Shown here piece by piece: positions 39,848-58,678 of a stretch of DNA of 64,000 nucleotides (the stretch's first letter is position 1; each line of letters starts with the position of its first letter). The position numbers and the translations under genes were made by a program. The notes beneath the pieces are model-generated. The model saw only the letters and a list, made by a program, of their open reading frames with translations, did no database searches and was not told the DNA's origin. This DNA comes from Promethearchaeota archaeon. GTDB lineage: Archaea > Asgardarchaeota > Lokiarchaeia > Sigyniarchaeales > SOKP01. The stretch covers positions 1 through 64,000 of the forward strand of contig JAHPZJ010000027.1 of the NCBI GenBank assembly GCA_019058245.1, read 5' to 3'.

Positions 39848-39949
39848 AGCCCAGTGGTGTAGCGGTCAAGCATCGGGGGCCCTGATAAGTCTAAACGTCT
39901 AGGATCTTGGAGATACCCCTGAACCACGGTTCGAATCCGTGCTGGGCTA
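39848..39949 (+). tRNA. tRNA-Gln(CTG) with a 29-nt canonical intron (39886-39914); C at position 33
   Basis: Acceptor AGCCCAG/CTGGGCT, T-arm CACGG-TTCGAAT-CCGTG, anticodon stem GGGGG/CCCCT, BHB at 37/38. Confidence 0.85.
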
Positions 39950-40028
39950 TTTTTATACTGGTATTCTTTGTTATCTACTTATATTTATATAATTGAATTT
40001 TCTTATTCTTAATTACAAACTAAGGAAA

Positions 40029-40754
40029 ATGATAGAAATGTTAATTGATCCAAAAGTAAATAAATTGATAATCTTTAATGGTGGCGGTGGTATTGTTGAA
40101 AGACAGATTAAACTATCCTTAAATCAAGGTTTAAATAAATTTGAGATTGCCAATGTACCCGCTTCATTTGATCCTAATTCTGCAGATATCCAATTAGAAT
40201 TTATTAATCCAGGAGATAAAGATTCAATCACCTTACAGCAAACAATTGTATCACTTCCAGATAGAAATACTTCTCAGCAGATTATAGACCGAGAAAAATC
40301 CGCAGCAACCAGTATTATTTCATATGCTATTGATTTTACGCGTGAATTAAGAGAAAAAGTTTCTAATATATGTGAAGCAAGTTCTTATAGAACATTTGCG
40401 GATATGAAGGGTGTATTTGATTTTATAATAAGTGCTTCAAAAGTGGGTGAAATAATTGTAAAGATAATATATTTCATTGCAGATCTCCGTATTAAATGGC
40501 AAACTACATTGCAAGTTGATATAAAAAATGATGGCAAAAATGCTCAAATCGAAGGATTTCTCGTTGTGGATAATCAAACAGGATTTTCTTATGAAAATGT
40601 AGAACTTGGTTTTGCAATTTTCGAGTTACCGAGTACTGACATGGAGATACAATATGATAATTTTGGTGAAGCCGAAGAAGAAATGGCTCAACAGGCGATT
40701 TCGAGCCTATCAAAACAAAAAAGAACTCAACGAATGAGGAATTTAATGCTCTGA
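40029..40754 (+). CDS. DUF4140/DUF4139-like protein (N-terminal part)
   Basis: KLIIFNGGGGIVERQI.L.L..G.N......VPASFDPNS and V.NQTG..YENVEL patterns; start at 40029 or 40038. Confidence 0.6.
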   Translation: MIEMLIDPKVNKLIIFNGGGGIVERQIKLSLNQGLNKFEIANVPASFDPNSADIQLEFINPGDKDSITLQQTIVSLPDRNTSQQIIDREKSAATSIISYAIDFTRELREKVSNICEASSYRTFADMKGVFDFIISASKVGEIIVKIIYFIADLRIKWQTTLQVDIKNDGKNAQIEGFLVVDNQTGFSYENVELGFAIFELPSTDMEIQYDNFGEAEEEMAQQAISSLSKQKRTQRMRNLML

Positions 40755-40755
40755 G

Positions 40756-41445
40756 GTGAAAAAAGTGAAAGCTAATGTACCTACTCGTAAAAAAATAAAG
40801 CTTAATTGGTTTAAATCGAATTGTGCATTGAATATTGAGCGCAAGATTGCAATTGAATATAATACCAATTCAGTAACTTATAATAAAATAACTTGGGATG
40901 TTTTAGTTCAATATGTTCTCACAAAAGAGGGAGATCCTAAAGAAATTCCTGCAAATTCCCCAATGACGCTCTACAAGGGAGGCTTACCTTTCCTTTTCTT
41001 ATCAACTTCAGTAACAATTGGGAATAAAATAATCTCAGAGGAACTGATTGATTCAGATATTACTGTTGACGATGATATTATAAATGTTGATGAAGGAGAA
41101 GATAAAGTCACCTACGAAGATGCTCGGGATCCTAAAGAGCATATTGAGGTAAGAACTCGACTTGATAAAATTACAAGGAAAATTACTATTGAAAACAAAC
41201 TAGACAATGAAATAGATTTAGAACTTAATTTCAAACAAACAAAAGATGTTTCTTTTATAAAATCACAACCTGAACCATCAAAAGTCGAAGAACCTAATTA
41301 TAATTATAATATAAAAATACCTTCAGAGCAAAAAGGCAGTGTAATCTTAGATCTTCAAGCAAAAATTGTGAAAAGAGTTACAAGAATTAAACCAGAATAT
41401 TTAAAATTAGAAGAAAATAGAATTAATAGGTTTAAAGATAAATAA
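40756..41445 (+). CDS. Beta-rich partner of the DUF4139-like protein
   Basis: Coupled to the previous gene; RKITIENK...I.LEL pattern similar to the DUF4139 C-terminus. Confidence 0.5.
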   Translation: MKKVKANVPTRKKIKLNWFKSNCALNIERKIAIEYNTNSVTYNKITWDVLVQYVLTKEGDPKEIPANSPMTLYKGGLPFLFLSTSVTIGNKIISEELIDSDITVDDDIINVDEGEDKVTYEDARDPKEHIEVRTRLDKITRKITIENKLDNEIDLELNFKQTKDVSFIKSQPEPSKVEEPNYNYNIKIPSEQKGSVILDLQAKIVKRVTRIKPEYLKLEENRINRFKDK

Positions 41446-41628
41446 CTAATTTTTTTTATTTTAAGCAAAAAAATTTTGATATTTTAGGTTGTCCCTAGTA
41501 CATTGGGATTTTTTTTCTATATTTGATATCTATTAAAATTCAAAAGTATAGGTATAAAACATTTAAAATTACAAATGTATTTTTATTACATAATTAAAAC
41601 TTAAATTAATATAAAAAGTAGAAGTCCA

Positions 41629-41880
41629 ATGAAACTGGAACGTATTAAAATTGAAAAAAAAAGATTTCTTACCCTTACGGTTATCTTCATAATAGCAGGG
41701 TCAATTCTTCTTGTTTTATCTGGTATTTGGGTTGTATCATGAGGTGAAATCGTGTATTCTTACGAATATTTAATGATTCCCGCAATAATATGCTATGTGG
41801 GGGCAATTGCTTTTTTTATAGTATATTTAATAGTAGTTATAATGCAATTTCGAATGAAAAGAATAAATCAAGCAAATTAA
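41629..41880 (+). CDS. Candidate small two-TM selenoprotein A (83 aa, Sec38 at TGA 41740-41742)
   Basis: MKLERIKIEKKRFLTLTVIFIIAGSILLVLSGIWVVS-U-GEIVYSYEYLMIPAIICYVGAIAFFIVYLIVVIMQFRMKRINQAN; homology to the paralog continues across the TGA; downstream SECIS. Confidence 0.75.
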
Positions 41881-41915
41881 AAATTATATCGAGAAAATGA
41901 GTATATATAAGATCT

Positions 41916-41986
41916 AACTTGAGAAAAATGATTTCTATAAAAAAATTTTAGTTATAGGATGATTATCCCCGCAAGGGACTCAAGTT
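41916..41986 (+). promoter_or_regulatory. Eukaryote-type SECIS element 1 (3' UTR)
   Basis: Helix I AACTTGAG/CTCAAGTT, core ATGAT...TGAT, helix II TTCTATAA/TTATAGGA, apical loop starting AAAAA, extra CCC-GCAA-GGG hairpin. Confidence 0.78.
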
Positions 41987-42117
41987 TTTTTATTTATATT
42001 TATAATGAATCATAAAAAAATAATCAAGAATTTCACACACTAATATTAAAAAGAAAAAACTGATTTATATAGAATAATTATATAATAAATTAATCAACAT
42101 TTAAAGGGAAAGATTCA

Positions 42118-42333
42118 ATGAAATATAGCACAAGTAGAGAAATATTTTCTGGATTTACGGTTTTCTTTGTAATTATCGGTATATGTCTTCTTTTATTATC
42201 TGGTCTTATGGCTTGAGGAACACAAGTATTTCCATACGCGTGGGTTCCAGCAATTATATGTTTTGTTGGTGCGATAATTTCCTATGATTCATATAAAAAA
42301 GTAGTAAAACAAGATTCTCGAAATAAAAAATAA
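42118..42333 (+). CDS. Candidate small two-TM selenoprotein B (71 aa, Sec33 at TGA 42214-42216)
   Basis: MKYSTSREIFSGFTVFFVIIGICLLLLSGLMA-U-GTQVFPYAWVPAIICFVGAIISYDSYKKVVKQDSRNKK; paralog of 41629-41880; downstream SECIS. Confidence 0.75.
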
Positions 42334-42382
42334 ATTATGTTCCTAAAGAATATACTGATAAACTCTGTTTAATTGTCATCAT

Positions 42383-42454
42383 TAATCCAAAAAAATGATT
42401 CCTATAAAAAAATCTTAGTTGTAGGATGATTATCCCCGCAAGGGATTTGGATTA
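42383..42454 (+). promoter_or_regulatory. Eukaryote-type SECIS element 2 (3' UTR)
   Basis: Helix I TAATCCAAA/TTTGGATTA, core ATGAT...TGAT, helix II TCCTATAA/TTGTAGGA, AAAAA loop, the same CCC-GCAA-GGG hairpin. Confidence 0.78.
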
Positions 42455-42463
42455 CATATTTTT

Positions 42464-42823
42464 TTAACCAGTTCTTTTGATTATATGATATCCAAATTTG
42501 GACTTTACTGGTTGTGAAATCTCACCTATCTTCAAATTCGTGCATGCATTCCAGAACTCCGGAACCATATCTCCTTTAGCAAATTCACCTAAATTACCAC
42601 CTCTTTTCTTACTCGAACATGTGGAATATTGGTTTGCCAATTGCTCAAATTTTTCACCTGCCTTTAAATCCTCATAAATCTCTTGAGCTTTAGTAAATTT
42701 TTCTACTAAGATGTGACTTGCTTTAATTTTTCCTCCACGAATGGGATTCCCTCCTGTTTTTGAGCCTCCTCCTTTTGATTGTGATCCTTTTTGAAATCCC
42801 TTTCCATATTTATTTTTTCCCAT
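42464..42823 (-). CDS. Parvulin-type peptidyl-prolyl isomerase with Gly/Lys-rich N-terminal extension
   Basis: ASHILV, FEQLA.QYS.C.S...GG.LG.F..G.MVPEF, FGYHII. Confidence 0.92.
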   Translation of the reverse strand: MGKNKYGKGFQKGSQSKGGGSKTGGNPIRGGKIKASHILVEKFTKAQEIYEDLKAGEKFEQLANQYSTCSSKKRGGNLGEFAKGDMVPEFWNACTNLKIGEISQPVKSKFGYHIIKRTG

Positions 42824-42902: not shown

Positions 42903-43319
42903 TTAATTGATTATGAGATACCTGAAATTCTTAATCTCTTCAATGCTGTTTATTTCGACAACAAGTCTTTGGAATCCTTGAAGAGTTCCATCATAAACCA
43001 TGAATGTGATAAAATTATTATTAACAAAATTTTGGTTTTTACTTACTATTTCTTCTTTATACTCATTTTCAATTCGGTTTAGTTTCTTTTGAACATAATG
43101 ATCATTTGGAGCAACTATAATCATATTACCAATTATATTTTTTGTGATTGGGAGTAACTCGCTAGATGAATCGAGACTAGAGGATATATCCTCTGTTGAC
43201 ATTAAGCGTAATAAAGCATCTCGGATTAATTTAGACTTATTATCATAATGATTTTTTGAAACAAGCTTATTTATGAACTTTTTAAGACTCTCGTTAATAC
43301 TAATACTTATAATGGGCAA
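42903..43319 (-). CDS. Ribbon-helix-helix regulator with NikR-like architecture
   Basis: IISISI...L...I..L.....Y.NKS.LIRDAL RHH followed by an ACT-like domain; NikR Ni-binding His/Cys not evident. Confidence 0.7.
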   Translation of the reverse strand: MPIISISINESLKKFINKLVSKNHYDNKSKLIRDALLRLMSTEDISSSLDSSSELLPITKNIIGNMIIVAPNDHYVQKKLNRIENEYKEEIVSKNQNFVNNNFITFMVYDGTLQGFQRLVVEINSIEEIKNFRYLIIN

Positions 43320-43394: not shown

Positions 43395-45767
43395 TTATAA
43401 TTTAATAGATCTCGCAATAACAGTTCTGAAATTTTCGACATCATTAACTAATTTATCAGCGTCTTCATCGTTAATCTTATCATCTTTACCGTATTTATTC
43501 AATTGAGTAAGCCAAAACTCAATTCTACCAAGAATAGCTTCTTTTTCACCTAGTACTTTTCGCAGTCGTACAAAAGTATCATGTAATTTGTTTCTTATAT
43601 TTTGAGCTTTCCATCTCAACATACAATAATCAGAAATTTCTGCCAAATTTTGGGTTATCGCCATTACATCAATAGTTTTTTCTCGTTCCTCTGATTTAAT
43701 CTTCCGTATTATATTTATTTCCTCAAATAAAAGCTCTATTATCTTAGCAAGGAAGCCAGTAAGTTGACCTGAATGGTTACACCAAACTCTAACCTCTAAA
43801 GACTGATTTACCTCAGATACATAAACTCGTGTTACAATTCTTCCACCACCAACCTTTGCTTCGGAACAATGCCAACTTTCTGCTTCATATTTTCCTTTCG
43901 CATCACTACCTTCATGAGAAGTGACTGTACTTACTTCAAAACGCTTTATTGTTCTTACTGCCGCTCTAAATGCTAAGCGGGGGTCTAAATCAGCAATTAA
44001 AAATGCTCGAGCATCATTAGGAAGATCTGCAATAGCTATTTGGATATCTTCAATTGTAGCTAAACAAGAAACTACCAAAGGACATTTTATTTGCACTTCT
44101 TTTTTTCTTATATGGACAGTTTTTTTGTCTCCTGATGCCGTTTTGTAGATTACATCACCACCAATATTCGATATCCCACATTCTTTTGGTTCTAAATAGA
44201 AATCAACACCTCTAGAATTTTTAGCTTCGATAACTGGTATATTTATTAGATGATCCTTCGCTTTATAACTAGTTGGTACATCTAAGAGTACTTTAACTGA
44301 ATTAATTGTCATACTACCTTGATTACGGATGACTACTTTAAAGTGTAATTGACCTCCAATAAAATCATATTCACGAACTACTTCAATTTTCCCACCATCA
44401 GTAGGTTCTTTAGTAATTTTCTGTGTTGATTGATCTTTTACTTCCATTGGTACACTATAAGCCACAAATGTTCTCTTTGACATATCAATATATCCATCAA
44501 TATCACCGCGAGCAATAATCTGAGCTAAATTTTCTTCAATGCTTGATTCAGTTACTCCTAATCTATTAGCTAATTCTCTTAAAGGCATAGTTCTATATGC
44601 TCTTGCAAGTTCTTTTATTTTCTTCTCCATATATTTATTTGTCATAAATTCTCTTCTTTGTGTAAAGATTCCTTTGATAGAACCTGTTTTTATAAGTTCA
44701 TGAAGGCTTTTTCTTGCTAATTCTACAGCAATTTTTAATTTTGTGGCTAGTTTTGAAAGCTCAAATAATCCTGTCTCTTTAGAATAGTTTTTAATATCTT
44801 GATAAATTTGATCTGCTGTAATGATTTCATTTCCACGATCTGCAAAAAATCCGTTAATGGATTTTGTTCTCATTATGTTTACACAAAATGACTTTACAAG
44901 TTCCGTTGGAATGTGAAAATTATTTGCAAGTTGTTTTAAGGAGACCCTACCTTTAGATTTTACTTCTTTTATCAAATTATCTAGGATATATTTTTGAGTA
45001 TAATACGTCTCTTTATCTAATGAGAAAGATCCTTTTATTTGGAATTGATTAATTAATTTATAAATTACTTTTATAGCTATATCAGAACTCATATCAAGCA
45101 TTATTCCTAAATCTGCTACCTTAACTGAACCTTCACTCTGAAACTTTGCTAATACTTTTTTCCGTATTTCGGTAGAGATATAATAAAACATCTGATTTTT
45201 TTGATCAATAATTCCATAGATTCTTTCTTCTTCTATATATTTATTGATGAATTTAACCATCTGTTCGGCTGAGATATTAAATGAATTCATAATTGTTGAA
45301 AAGTTAATTATCGGGGCTCTTTTTAATAGATCCAAGAAACATTTAGGACATACTTCCCTTCCTATAATATGTCTTAATTTCTTACTACATAATGTCATTT
45401 TACTTCCTTTCATAAGGCCATATCTTATCGCTTCTCTTGCTAATTTCTCTTTTGATGGAAAAAATAAACCTGGGGTTTTTAGATATGAATTCCAAGCTTC
45501 TGGACAATCAGTATTAGTACATTCTAAATAATATTGACCTGAAGATAACCTTTCCAATCTTAAAAGATGCTTACAAACAGGACATTCACTATTATCTACA
45601 ACGGTACATTTATAGTTTCTTTCTATTGCCTTTACTTTTGAATAGAAGAGATTGTGTTTTCGACACTCATGAGTTTCTGTGGTTGCTATATGATTAATAC
45701 AGAAACTGGAATTACATTTTTCACACGTAAAGTCGATTCTTTCGCTTTCACAAAATAAACATTTCAT
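43395..45767 (-). CDS. Multidomain protein: Zn fingers, tandem winged-helix (PCI/UFL1-like) repeats, Ig-like ear/platform domain
   Basis: N-terminal Cys/His clusters; ~5 repeats of ..L..LA....I........L...G.I.G.F; C-terminal FKVVIRN...V.F.L.P..C beta-sandwich. Confidence 0.6.
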   Translation of the reverse strand: MKCLFCESERIDFTCEKCNSSFCINHIATTETHECRKHNLFYSKVKAIERNYKCTVVDNSECPVCKHLLRLERLSSGQYYLECTNTDCPEAWNSYLKTPGLFFPSKEKLAREAIRYGLMKGSKMTLCSKKLRHIIGREVCPKCFLDLLKRAPIINFSTIMNSFNISAEQMVKFINKYIEEERIYGIIDQKNQMFYYISTEIRKKVLAKFQSEGSVKVADLGIMLDMSSDIAIKVIYKLINQFQIKGSFSLDKETYYTQKYILDNLIKEVKSKGRVSLKQLANNFHIPTELVKSFCVNIMRTKSINGFFADRGNEIITADQIYQDIKNYSKETGLFELSKLATKLKIAVELARKSLHELIKTGSIKGIFTQRREFMTNKYMEKKIKELARAYRTMPLRELANRLGVTESSIEENLAQIIARGDIDGYIDMSKRTFVAYSVPMEVKDQSTQKITKEPTDGGKIEVVREYDFIGGQLHFKVVIRNQGSMTINSVKVLLDVPTSYKAKDHLINIPVIEAKNSRGVDFYLEPKECGISNIGGDVIYKTASGDKKTVHIRKKEVQIKCPLVVSCLATIEDIQIAIADLPNDARAFLIADLDPRLAFRAAVRTIKRFEVSTVTSHEGSDAKGKYEAESWHCSEAKVGGGRIVTRVYVSEVNQSLEVRVWCNHSGQLTGFLAKIIELLFEEINIIRKIKSEEREKTIDVMAITQNLAEISDYCMLRWKAQNIRNKLHDTFVRLRKVLGEKEAILGRIEFWLTQLNKYGKDDKINDEDADKLVNDVENFRTVIARSIKL

Positions 45768-56929: not shown

Positions 56930-58678
56930 TTATTTCTCTATTAGGATAAGCTTATTTTCATCCAATATAATTTTATTCTTATTTAAGGGACTAAGGTTAT
57001 AAGTATTTTTCATTGTATTAACAATTAGATTTCCAATAAACCTAAGCTTAAGTGTATTAAATAAATCATTAATCATTTGTAGATCTTGGGGAATTGAGAC
57101 TCCAAAAAAGGGATTTAAAAATAAGTATATACTTGCACAAATTATCATCCCTATGATCAAACTTATCGTACCATCAAATGGAAAGATTAATAGAATGAAG
57201 AATAAAATCAATAAATTAGGAATCAATCTATATAATTGAAAGTTATATTTAATTTCTAATTTTTTTTTGAGTTGAAATAAAATATAAGGTAATAAAAAAA
57301 GTGAAGAAATAATCATAACAATCCCTATTCCTAGTATCTTAAAAAGGAAAATAAAAAACGGAGTAGTTGCAATTATTATTAATAAAGTTATTCCAAAACC
57401 TTTAGCAGCTACGTCGGCATTTCCCGAGCCTATTAGAGCATTTCCAAATAATGTTGCATATCCATAGATAAATTGCCCTGAAATAATAAGAATGAATAAA
57501 GTTTGAGCCATATTGAATTGATCTTTATTAAAAACCCCATTTTCTATAAAAAAGCCTCTATGTAAGTAAAATAATATTTCCCCAGAAAGAGCAATCATTG
57601 CAGTCATAAAACCTAATGCTAAAATACTCGAGATTCGTGTAGAAGCATTTATAGACTCCTCTATGGTCTCATGATTATCTTTTACATTTGCTTCAGCTAT
57701 TTCAATATTTAATGGAGCAGAATAATAAAGAATTACCGATTTTACAGCACCATAAGTTAACAAAACAGTCAATAAACTCAAACCAAATCCTTGTGTTGAA
57801 GGATCGGTAAAAACTGCTAGGTAGATTGCAGCAAAAAAAAATAAAATATCTTCAAAAAATCTAGAGTTTTGAATATTCGTTATCATAGAATACACCGAAT
57901 TTTTCATATAATCCCATATTTGATGTTTTTTAATCAAATTTCTGTATTTTGAGGGTGCTTTCTTTCTCATAGCTTGAGATGTTAGATGCGACTTCAAAAT
58001 CTCAAATATAGAATAAGGTGCTAATCGTATAAAAAAATAAATTAAGAGAATTAAGGTAATTATATTGAAACATGGATAAAATGCAAATAAAGAAGGATTC
58101 AGATTAAATGATATGAAAATATATGCAAATATTAATAAAAATATTCCATTAAATATTGATGTAAAAGCAATTATATCATATCTATTTCTAATTTCAATTC
58201 CAATTTGAAACATTAATGTACCATAAATCAAAAAAGTAGAGAAACCAGAAGCAAAGATACATTCTCTTAATAATATATTTGTTAAAAAAAACCAAAAAAT
58301 AAAAGGAATAATTATCATAATTAATCCTAATCCTAATCCAATTAATAATAATAGCTTGGAGTAAGTAGTAGCTTTCAATCGTCCAAATTCCTCATCAATA
58401 ACAAATGCAGCTTTAATTTCCGCGATAAAATATCTAGAAATCCCAATTCCAATTAAACTAACAATCCCATTAATAGCTGTTGTTAATCCAAAATATTGTA
58501 ACCCATCCCAACCTGTACCTAATATTACAAAAATCCAAATACAAGCTGCATTAATTAATGAAAAGAACATATTAAGAGATCCAGAAGTGACTGCTCGCGA
58601 ACTACCTTCTTTTGCAAAAAAATTATGTTCTCTTATGAATTCAATTTGGAATTTTTCTTTTTCTGGTTTTTTTTCCAT
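56930..58678 (-). CDS. MATE/oligosaccharide flippase-like membrane protein
   Basis: About 14 TM; G...LQYFG and G..GIG patterns of the MOP superfamily. Confidence 0.6.
   Translation of the reverse strand: MEKKPEKEKFQIEFIREHNFFAKEGSSRAVTSGSLNMFFSLINAACIWIFVILGTGWDGLQYFGLTTAINGIVSLIGIGISRYFIAEIKAAFVIDEEFGRLKATTYSKLLLLIGLGLGLIMIIIPFIFWFFLTNILLRECIFASGFSTFLIYGTLMFQIGIEIRNRYDIIAFTSIFNGIFLLIFAYIFISFNLNPSLFAFYPCFNIITLILLIYFFIRLAPYSIFEILKSHLTSQAMRKKAPSKYRNLIKKHQIWDYMKNSVYSMITNIQNSRFFEDILFFFAAIYLAVFTDPSTQGFGLSLLTVLLTYGAVKSVILYYSAPLNIEIAEANVKDNHETIEESINASTRISSILALGFMTAMIALSGEILFYLHRGFFIENGVFNKDQFNMAQTLFILIISGQFIYGYATLFGNALIGSGNADVAAKGFGITLLIIIATTPFFIFLFKILGIGIVMIISSLFLLPYILFQLKKKLEIKYNFQLYRLIPNLLILFFILLIFPFDGTISLIIGMIICASIYLFLNPFFGVSIPQDLQMINDLFNTLKLRFIGNLIVNTMKNTYNLSPLNKNKIILDENKLILIEK

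Follow-up and report, generated by a model that had tools for sequence, protein, structure and literature searches.

Candidate two-helix membrane selenoprotein genes with lokiSECIS elements in a Promethearchaeota archaeon

The window analysed here, a 64,000-nucleotide stretch of the genome of a Promethearchaeota archaeon, carries two short genes, A and B, that are very probably genuine selenoprotein genes whose internal UGA is read as selenocysteine (Sec). The comparative evidence for this is strong, and there is no experimental demonstration. A and B belong to the class of lokiSECIS-dependent selenoproteins and to none of the named protein families tested. Their identity and architecture as small membrane proteins are likely to be as proposed, a rating from which function is excluded. 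An earlier, sequence-only reading had claimed that A and B encode small paralogous selenoproteins with two membrane helices, each with its own SECIS, and form an Asgard family not yet catalogued; this core was supported in every test run. Its description of a tandem pair had to be amended, as the two genes are only a fraction of a larger family that evolves by birth and death and has arrays in which SECIS elements are shared. That reading would have been refuted by a genome without Sec machinery, by homologues without TGA at the Sec position, or by restart of translation behind the TGA as a general feature; none of these was met.

Table 1 Features of the cassette site in the window
Feature	Position	Strand	Description
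tRNA-like gene with intron, probably tRNA-Gln	39848..39949	+	Conserved 5' landmark of cassette site; identity read by eye from sequence
Gene A	41629..41880	+	83-aa two-helix membrane selenoprotein candidate, Sec38, Cys55 in helix 2
Gene A in-frame TGA (Sec38)	41740..41742	+	Homologues with TGA at same column
lokiSECIS of gene A	41916..41986	+	Lower stem; AUGA/GA core 41928-41963; extra 3' hairpin 41966-41978
Gene B	42118..42333	+	71-aa two-helix membrane selenoprotein candidate, Sec33, Cys48 in helix 2
Gene B in-frame TGA (Sec33)	42214..42216	+	
lokiSECIS of gene B	42385..42452	+	Core 42395-42430; extra 3' hairpin 42433-42445
Parvulin gene	42464..42823	-	Pfam Rotamase; conserved convergent 3' landmark of cassette site

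Evidence for recoding of UGA in genes A and B

Under the standard code, the gap at 41445-42464 contains no open reading frame (ORF) of 50 aa or more. When TGA is read as Sec, the same gap holds two frames, A and B (Table 1), each with Gly directly after the internal TGA and with TAA as the terminal stop. The two products are 34% identical before the TGA and 45% identical after it. The sequence-only reading had described these two read-through ORFs, had stated that similarity after the TGA was at least as strong as before it, and had placed a separate SECIS within about 50 nt of each TAA. The first two claims held exactly as described; the third held with a small correction of the distance, the SECIS cores starting 47 nt (A) and 61 nt (B) past the TAA. 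Genome-wide, seven read-through ORFs with two helices and a single UGA were detected, and only A and B have a lokiSECIS within 150 nt.

Homologues were collected by iterated protein searches and SECIS-pattern searches. The Sec column is UGA in all the 43 aligned Sec-type genes and never TAA or TAG. It is the only near-invariant column of an alignment whose mean column identity is 22-25%. The pooled dN/dS for eight orthologue pairs was 0.29 before the UGA and 0.25 after it. Gene B has a 76% identical orthologue in a relative (G102), its nearest; this pair gave a dN of 0.14 and a dS of 0.105, and the neighbouring genes a dN of 0.02 and a dS of 0.2. Relaxed or positive selection is the likely inference for this pair; purifying selection is not shown for it, and the changes are few. 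The related genomes in these family comparisons are not independent. All the fully read Sec genes (N = 42) terminate with TAA or TAG, and terminal TGA is frequent in the Sec-less paralogues, where it overlaps AUGA.

Copies without Sec provide further evidence. An orthologue at the exact position of the window's genes has Ala for Sec, and its SECIS, the decayed copy in GCA_964515085.1, lacks AUGA and GA, the rest of the element being still recognisable. This joint loss of Sec and SECIS core marks the bases that matter. In a copy with Gly for Sec, the SECIS loop is one base shorter. In about nine copies Sec has given way to Ala, Gly or Ser or is missing through deletion, and such changes are commoner than replacement by Cys. 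Cys homologues are the usual validating sign for selenoproteins, and no broad class of them was found. The cases detected are a second site in helix 2, which is TGT (Cys) in one genome (G029) and TGA in another (G007) and in two metagenome copies, and four distant array paralogues with two Cys in the loop, the first of which aligns to the Sec column; the linkage of these four to the family is weak, and no cases were found elsewhere. Sec-less paralogues persist with open frames; therefore, Sec is not required for the role of every member.

Separate translation of the downstream half had been raised as a worry, since gene A contains GAGGTGA and an in-frame GTG at 41752. This is not general: an in-frame restart codon within six codons past the UGA was found in seven of the 43 genes. 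We note that recoding in this family, although very probable, is supported by comparison only, without proteomic or labelling data.

lokiSECIS elements and selenocysteine machinery of the host

The SECIS elements of A and B share one build: AUGA, a 9-bp stem, an 11-nt loop that opens with five A and closes with AG, and then GA. Both fit the published lokiSECIS model exactly (PMC4989117). They are identical to each other at 52 of 55 nt, and no other close copies of them were found in the genome. A strict SECIS pattern matched eight times in the real genome against 0, 0, 0, 1 and 0 times in five locally shuffled genomes. Other lokiSECIS copies in the genome sit behind MvhD selenoprotein genes, and the build behind HdrA-MvhD is the same as in the A/B family. 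On the minus strand of another contig (G000:C10), two further lokiSECIS are located at 58290 and 60085, one of them behind a Cys-Sec-Sec frame. The SECIS stems covary within the family, with 96.8% of cells paired and two-sided changes in nine of the 12 pairs; slid controls gave 32-54%. These counts are inflated by sequence kinship and were taken as support, not as a probability. An Rfam search of the window gave no SECIS match, because Rfam has no Loki model.

An additional hairpin of four covarying pairs with a 5-base loop lies 3' of both cores (Table 1). The same hairpin is present behind HdrA-MvhD genes and is therefore a lineage feature, and it is retained in the Ala orthologue whose SECIS core is gone. 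A word search of Huang et al. revealed no mention of it. The function of lokiSECIS has never been demonstrated, and a Loki element tried in Methanococcus maripaludis showed no activity (PMC11881835), so that a reporter in this species is no valid test. The family offers natural experiments on this untested element, in its covarying copies and in single elements that serve two to four short cistrons.

The host genome encodes SepSecS, PSTK, SelB/EFSec and tRNA-Sec. The SelB/EFSec gene, which scored slightly below the cut-off of the bacterial model, adjoins the SepSecS gene. The tRNA-Sec gene was located by BLAST outside the window, just upstream of SepSecS (G000:C14:82523-82680, plus strand). 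It is split by two non-canonical introns, of about 34 nt in the D arm and about 30 nt in the T arm, that are partly complementary to each other, and for this reason both the Rfam tRNA-Sec model and ARAGORN missed it. In three relatives (G029, G003 and G094) the tRNA-Sec gene is intronless. SelD was not found in the host assembly, which is 76% complete; the genes that flank SelD in a relative are absent from it too. Sec-containing SelD was found in all of the five family-bearing relatives tested, and SepSecS in five more. Tandem pairs of Sec-containing selD genes were observed in four of the five relatives tested for SelD (L147-L151). Huang et al. required at least three components of the Sec machinery together with a known selenoprotein (PMC11227280), and the host meets this requirement by SepSecS, PSTK, SelB and tRNA-Sec plus its MvhD selenoproteins. 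TGA serves as the terminal stop of 205 of the 1,459 long ORFs of the host (14%).

A separate hidden selenoprotein candidate was seen on the minus strand of contig G000:C13, with its own lokiSECIS at 146168 (L162:2669). It encodes 86 aa with a GG-U-GC motif and one membrane helix; similar one-helix genes occur in G027, G118 and G140.

Extent of the family and its cassette sites

We counted 54 intact UGA-bearing family genes, 36 in 22 GTDB genomes and 18 in metagenome contigs. The relatives that share the SECIS element are Promethearchaeota/Lokiarchaeia MAGs. Members occur in 20 of the 54 genomes of the window's genus and in two of the 42 genomes of a sister genus, which additionally has two frameshifted copies; both genera belong to Lokiarchaeia. 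The family was not found in many genomes of the genus that are more than 95% complete, nor were members found in other families among the 400 Asgard genomes searched, the query being short and divergent. When 50 sequences were clustered, 46 formed one cluster at E<1e-4, a level that reversed sequences never reached. The family tree is based on 72 columns only, its deep branching is unresolved, and no order of events was inferred from it. Subfamilies are retained across species.

Most copies are located at two variable sites. One of them, the site seen in the window, is flanked by a tRNA gene and the parvulin gene, and the other by genes for a RadB-like ATPase and RadA. The latter site holds arrays of nine genes in G007, five in G029 and eleven in a JGI contig. 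The JGI array comprises nine genes with UGA and has five SECIS, and the public gene calls of this contig end at the TGA or skip the gene. In such arrays one SECIS serves as the 3' element behind two to four genes. Frameshifted copies and swaps between promoter and coding region occur in the family. Cassette shuffling is evident in G024, where gene A is reduced to its final 17 codons and its SECIS (L043:8674-8790), and in G102, where the upstream sequence of gene A is fused to a B-type coding region (L045:80-123). Family members are accessory genes. Each gene with its SECIS behaves as a cassette, and at a small number of variable sites such cassettes undergo duplication, shuffling, divergence and decay.

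The usual neighbours of the cassettes are housekeeping genes. The parvulin gene is a neighbour also in G024, G009, G102, G006, G094, G103 and L163. In a single case, a member sits among genes for OsmC, CoA-disulfide reductase/rhodanese, rubrerythrin and superoxide reductase. ARAGORN, which finds only six tRNAs in the host genome, missed the tRNA-like gene of Table 1; in the relative G024, the matching gene has an additional intron. The window also encodes a two-gene pair with a weak DUF4140 match (39993-41445, plus strand), whose presence at the site is independent of the Sec cassettes and which is located on one side of them or the other, depending on the genome. A NikR-like ribbon-helix-helix regulator (42903-43319, minus strand) is conserved beside parvulin at the cassette site, and no evidence was seen that it controls the Sec cassettes. 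A 790-aa protein (43395-45767, minus strand) matched PCI, UFL1 and DDRGK winged-helix domains and, weakly and at its C-terminus, VPS28; it is a candidate eukaryotic signature protein.

Topology, possible function and comparison with known systems

Two hydrophobic segments are present in all members, and Sec lies 0-15 residues past the first one. The mean number of Lys and Arg residues is 2.5 in the N-terminal part, 0.8 in the loop and 2.7 in the C-terminal part; by the positive-inside rule, this bias places the loop outside. The products are likely to be helical hairpins of 60-90 residues whose basic termini are both cytoplasmic and whose single Sec, immediately behind helix 1, lies at the outer face of the membrane, an inference from sequence alone. 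The basic cytoplasmic termini and outward Sec loop of the sequence-only reading are consistent with the charge bias, from which topology is inferred without measurement. For a natural UGA-free paralogue, helices were predicted at residues 2-26 and 37-64, with a pLDDT of 71 and a shallow alignment; such paralogues, not A or B themselves, were the input for folding and for the large protein search described below.

The residue before Sec is Ala, Ser, Thr or Gly in 37 of the 43 members, and Gly follows Sec in 28. Cys or Sec occurs in helix 2 in 11 of the 43 and is conserved within the window's subclade, and 21 members are Cys-free. A conserved Cys, Ser or Thr partner of Sec thus exists in the subclade of A and B and does not exist family-wide, so that the earlier proposal of a conserved Cys in the second helix as a resolving or relay residue held only in part. 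One member has a loop with three UGA codons (L135:3489-3704 in G143), and another genome (G145, L074) contains a frameshifted copy of the three-Sec gene and a paralogue without the entire loop.

In the mechanism we propose, the ribosome would read the internal UGA as selenocysteine, with the lokiSECIS in each 3' UTR and tRNA-Sec/SelB directing the decoding. The hairpin would act as a carrier that holds an exposed selenol at the cell surface, where it may take up oxidants or soft metals and metalloids (peroxide, polysulfide, Hg, Cu or As). The selenol may then be recycled by outside reductants, or the protein may simply be turned over, and a Cys or second Sec in helix 2 may be an optional relay in some subfamilies. 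A carrier of one exposed selenol is preferred to an enzyme with a built active site because Sec is the sole conserved residue and there is no general resolving Cys. Rapid reaction with peroxides and tight binding of soft metals are established chemistry of selenols, and for this reason surface redox or soft-metal scavenging is the role that we rank first. It is an inference without experimental data, which we hold tentatively and would not quite expect to be confirmed. The hints toward it, each a single case, are the three-Sec loop and the copy in the OsmC/CoA-disulfide reductase/rubrerythrin/superoxide reductase cluster.

Other explanations leave Sec recoding intact and differ in what the product is or does. 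One possibility is a processed precursor, in which helix 1 is a signal peptide cut beside Sec, leaving a short tail-anchored peptide with N-terminal Sec, maybe lipid-modified. Of 31 non-redundant members, 25 conform to the (-3,-1) small-residue rule before Sec, the highest count for any offset from -6 to +7, and a basic n-region and hydrophobic core lie upstream of the small residue at -1. However, the pattern fits a cut two residues later nearly as often (23 of 31), and small residues are known to flank exposed Sec in many selenoproteins. Furthermore, the strict lipobox [LVI][ASTVI][GAS] is present in only 13 of the 43 members, fitted by A (V-V-S) and not by B (L-M-A); in some members, position -1 is Leu, Val or Pro and helix 1 is separated from Sec by 10-15 residues; few lipoproteins are known from Asgard (PMC12462473); and a lipobox Cys was found in only two of 78 proteins of the host genome with a single N-terminal helix. 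It is also possible that the genes are conflict cassettes encoding hypervariable immunity or virus-exclusion proteins, in which Sec would form a diselenide cross-link between subunits that survives sulfidic sediment, or would attack disulfides of incoming particles. The patchy presence of the family, its arrays of 5-11 divergent paralogues, the frameshifted copies, the promoter/coding swaps, the tRNA-adjacent site and a dN of gene B about six times that of its neighbours agree with this idea. Against it, PHROGs gave no match, the SECIS pattern had no match in IMG/VR, no toxin, integrase or defence gene was seen beside any cassette, and dN/dS is well below 1 in most orthologue pairs. A selenium sink or sensor, in which cheap peptides absorb surplus Sec or the balance of read-through and truncation reports selenium status, is unlikely. 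The loss of Sec to Ala, Gly, Ser or deletion more than to Cys, the many copies and the three-Sec member speak for it, but a peptide with one Sec in 70 residues stores selenium poorly, purifying selection acts on the helix sequences, subfamilies persist from species to species, and no link to Sec-machinery genes was found.

The remaining alternatives deny selenium altogether. If the TGA were a real stop, the genes would be pseudogenes or would yield two short peptides, the second from an internal GTG. This reading could draw on the restart signals in gene A, the use of TGA at the end of 14% of long ORFs and the broken copies of the family. We consider it very unlikely, since restart codons are found in only a few genes, frame and selection run past the TGA, a covarying SECIS lies downstream and decays where the TGA is lost, and the column never shows the drift to TAA or TAG expected of a stop. 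Reassignment of TGA to Trp or Cys throughout the genome is all but excluded; nothing beyond the open frame supports it, whereas 205 long ORFs end in TGA, Sec-less paralogues stop at TGA, and the tRNA with a UCA anticodon is the tRNA-Sec adjoining SepSecS. A bolder reading, which is possible, sees hypervariable cell-surface selenopeptide cassettes whose near-identical SECIS are both recoding signals and repeats for duplication and swapping. It is likewise conceivable that their Sec is non-enzymatic (cleaved to an N-terminal position, lipid-bearing or in a diselenide cross-link) and serves in surface defence or cell-cell interaction. If true, this would be a use of selenocysteine undescribed in any domain of life. 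The uncleaved membrane hairpin with an exposed selenol remains the reading that we prefer.

This hairpin family was compared with known families and systems. Pfam, NCBIfam (June 2026) and PHROGs gave no family match at cut-off. Weak Pfam/NCBIfam matches (DUF2269, holin and MAG0110) were far below cut-off and were rejected, and matches in proteins of 1,300-1,900 aa and in ORFs resembling sugar transporters were discarded as unspecific similarity between helices. A profile of UGA-free paralogues gave seven matches among 1.84 billion proteins, all of them family-like. An ESM Atlas search with the natural Ala homologue produced only leads below 0.9 and no family, and a word-index protein search with the Gly homologue found nothing. 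A sigma-70 promoter scan, which is unsuited to archaea, was at chance level and was discarded. No family of this type is among the 119 prokaryotic selenoprotein families in a 2026 review, and no description of the family was found in the literature searched, most subscription journals being outside the search.

Seven Asgard selenoprotein families, namely SelD, FrhA/VhuU, HdrA, FrhD/VhuD, PrxL, AhpF-N and DsbA-like, were catalogued by homology and a check for Cys homologues (Huang, Xiao & Zhang 2024; PMC11227280). Mariotti et al. 2016 (PMC4989117) reported no further candidates in their Loki data. The A/B family did not meet the criterion for homology to the seven catalogued soluble folds. It shares with the lokiarchaeial selenoprotein genes (HdrA-VhuD, VhuU/FrhA, PrxL and SelD; PMC4989117, PMC11227280) an identical recoding signal close behind the stop and the avoidance of UGA as terminal stop by upstream genes, and with HdrA-VhuD the use of one SECIS for more than one cistron. 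However, the catalogued families are soluble enzymes or thioredoxin-fold proteins, whereas the A/B family is integral to the membrane, shorter than 90 aa, without a broad Cys class and arranged in variable arrays. The A/B family reveals a systematic undercount of the Asgard selenoproteome: short genes without Cys homologues escape searches for Sec/Cys pairs, and gene callers split them in two.

Bacterial membrane selenoproteins, including MerT (putative mercuric transport, PF02411, C/SxxU), YeeE/YedE (PF04143), the SaoP permease and SO_0444 efflux proteins (PMC13188914), likewise have Sec in or beside membrane helices and a plausible soft-metal or sulfur chemistry, and by analogy the helix-2 Cys or Sec of some A/B subfamilies may recall a metal relay. 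Unlike them, the A/B family has only two helices, no CxxU/UxxC and a SECIS in the 3' UTR, the bacterial SECIS being located after the UGA. No HMM of the MerT/MerF or YeeE type in Pfam or NCBIfam matched, and a C/SxxU or paired-Cys motif is absent from the family alignments. Selenobacteriocin (TIGR04081, SGUG; PMC13188914) is also a small peptide with a small residue before U-G and several copies per genome, but the A/B family has a second membrane helix after Sec; TIGR04081 gave no match, and no radical SAM or other maturase gene was seen beside any cassette. The basic n-region, hydrophobic helix, small residues, chalcogen residue and following Gly resemble prokaryotic lipoproteins, although the strict lipobox is a minority feature as given above and no soluble domain follows. 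The archaeal lipidation enzymes AliA/AliB were reported from Euryarchaeota and DPANN, not Asgard (PMC12462473).

Eukaryotic SELENOK and SELENOS are small proteins with one helix, a cytosolic Sec near the C-terminus and an AUGA/GA SECIS in the 3' UTR. The A/B family resembles them as small membrane-anchored selenoproteins with AUGA/GA 3' UTR SECIS, and differs in its Sec mid-chain between two helices, predicted to lie outside, and in the lack of a Pfam sequence match. While lokiSECIS decoding was known, the protein family, its architecture and its array behaviour are probably new. As far as we found, no selenoprotein family integral to the membrane had been reported from archaea before, so that this one would be the first, and it occurs in the group closest to eukaryotes, which themselves have several small membrane selenoproteins.
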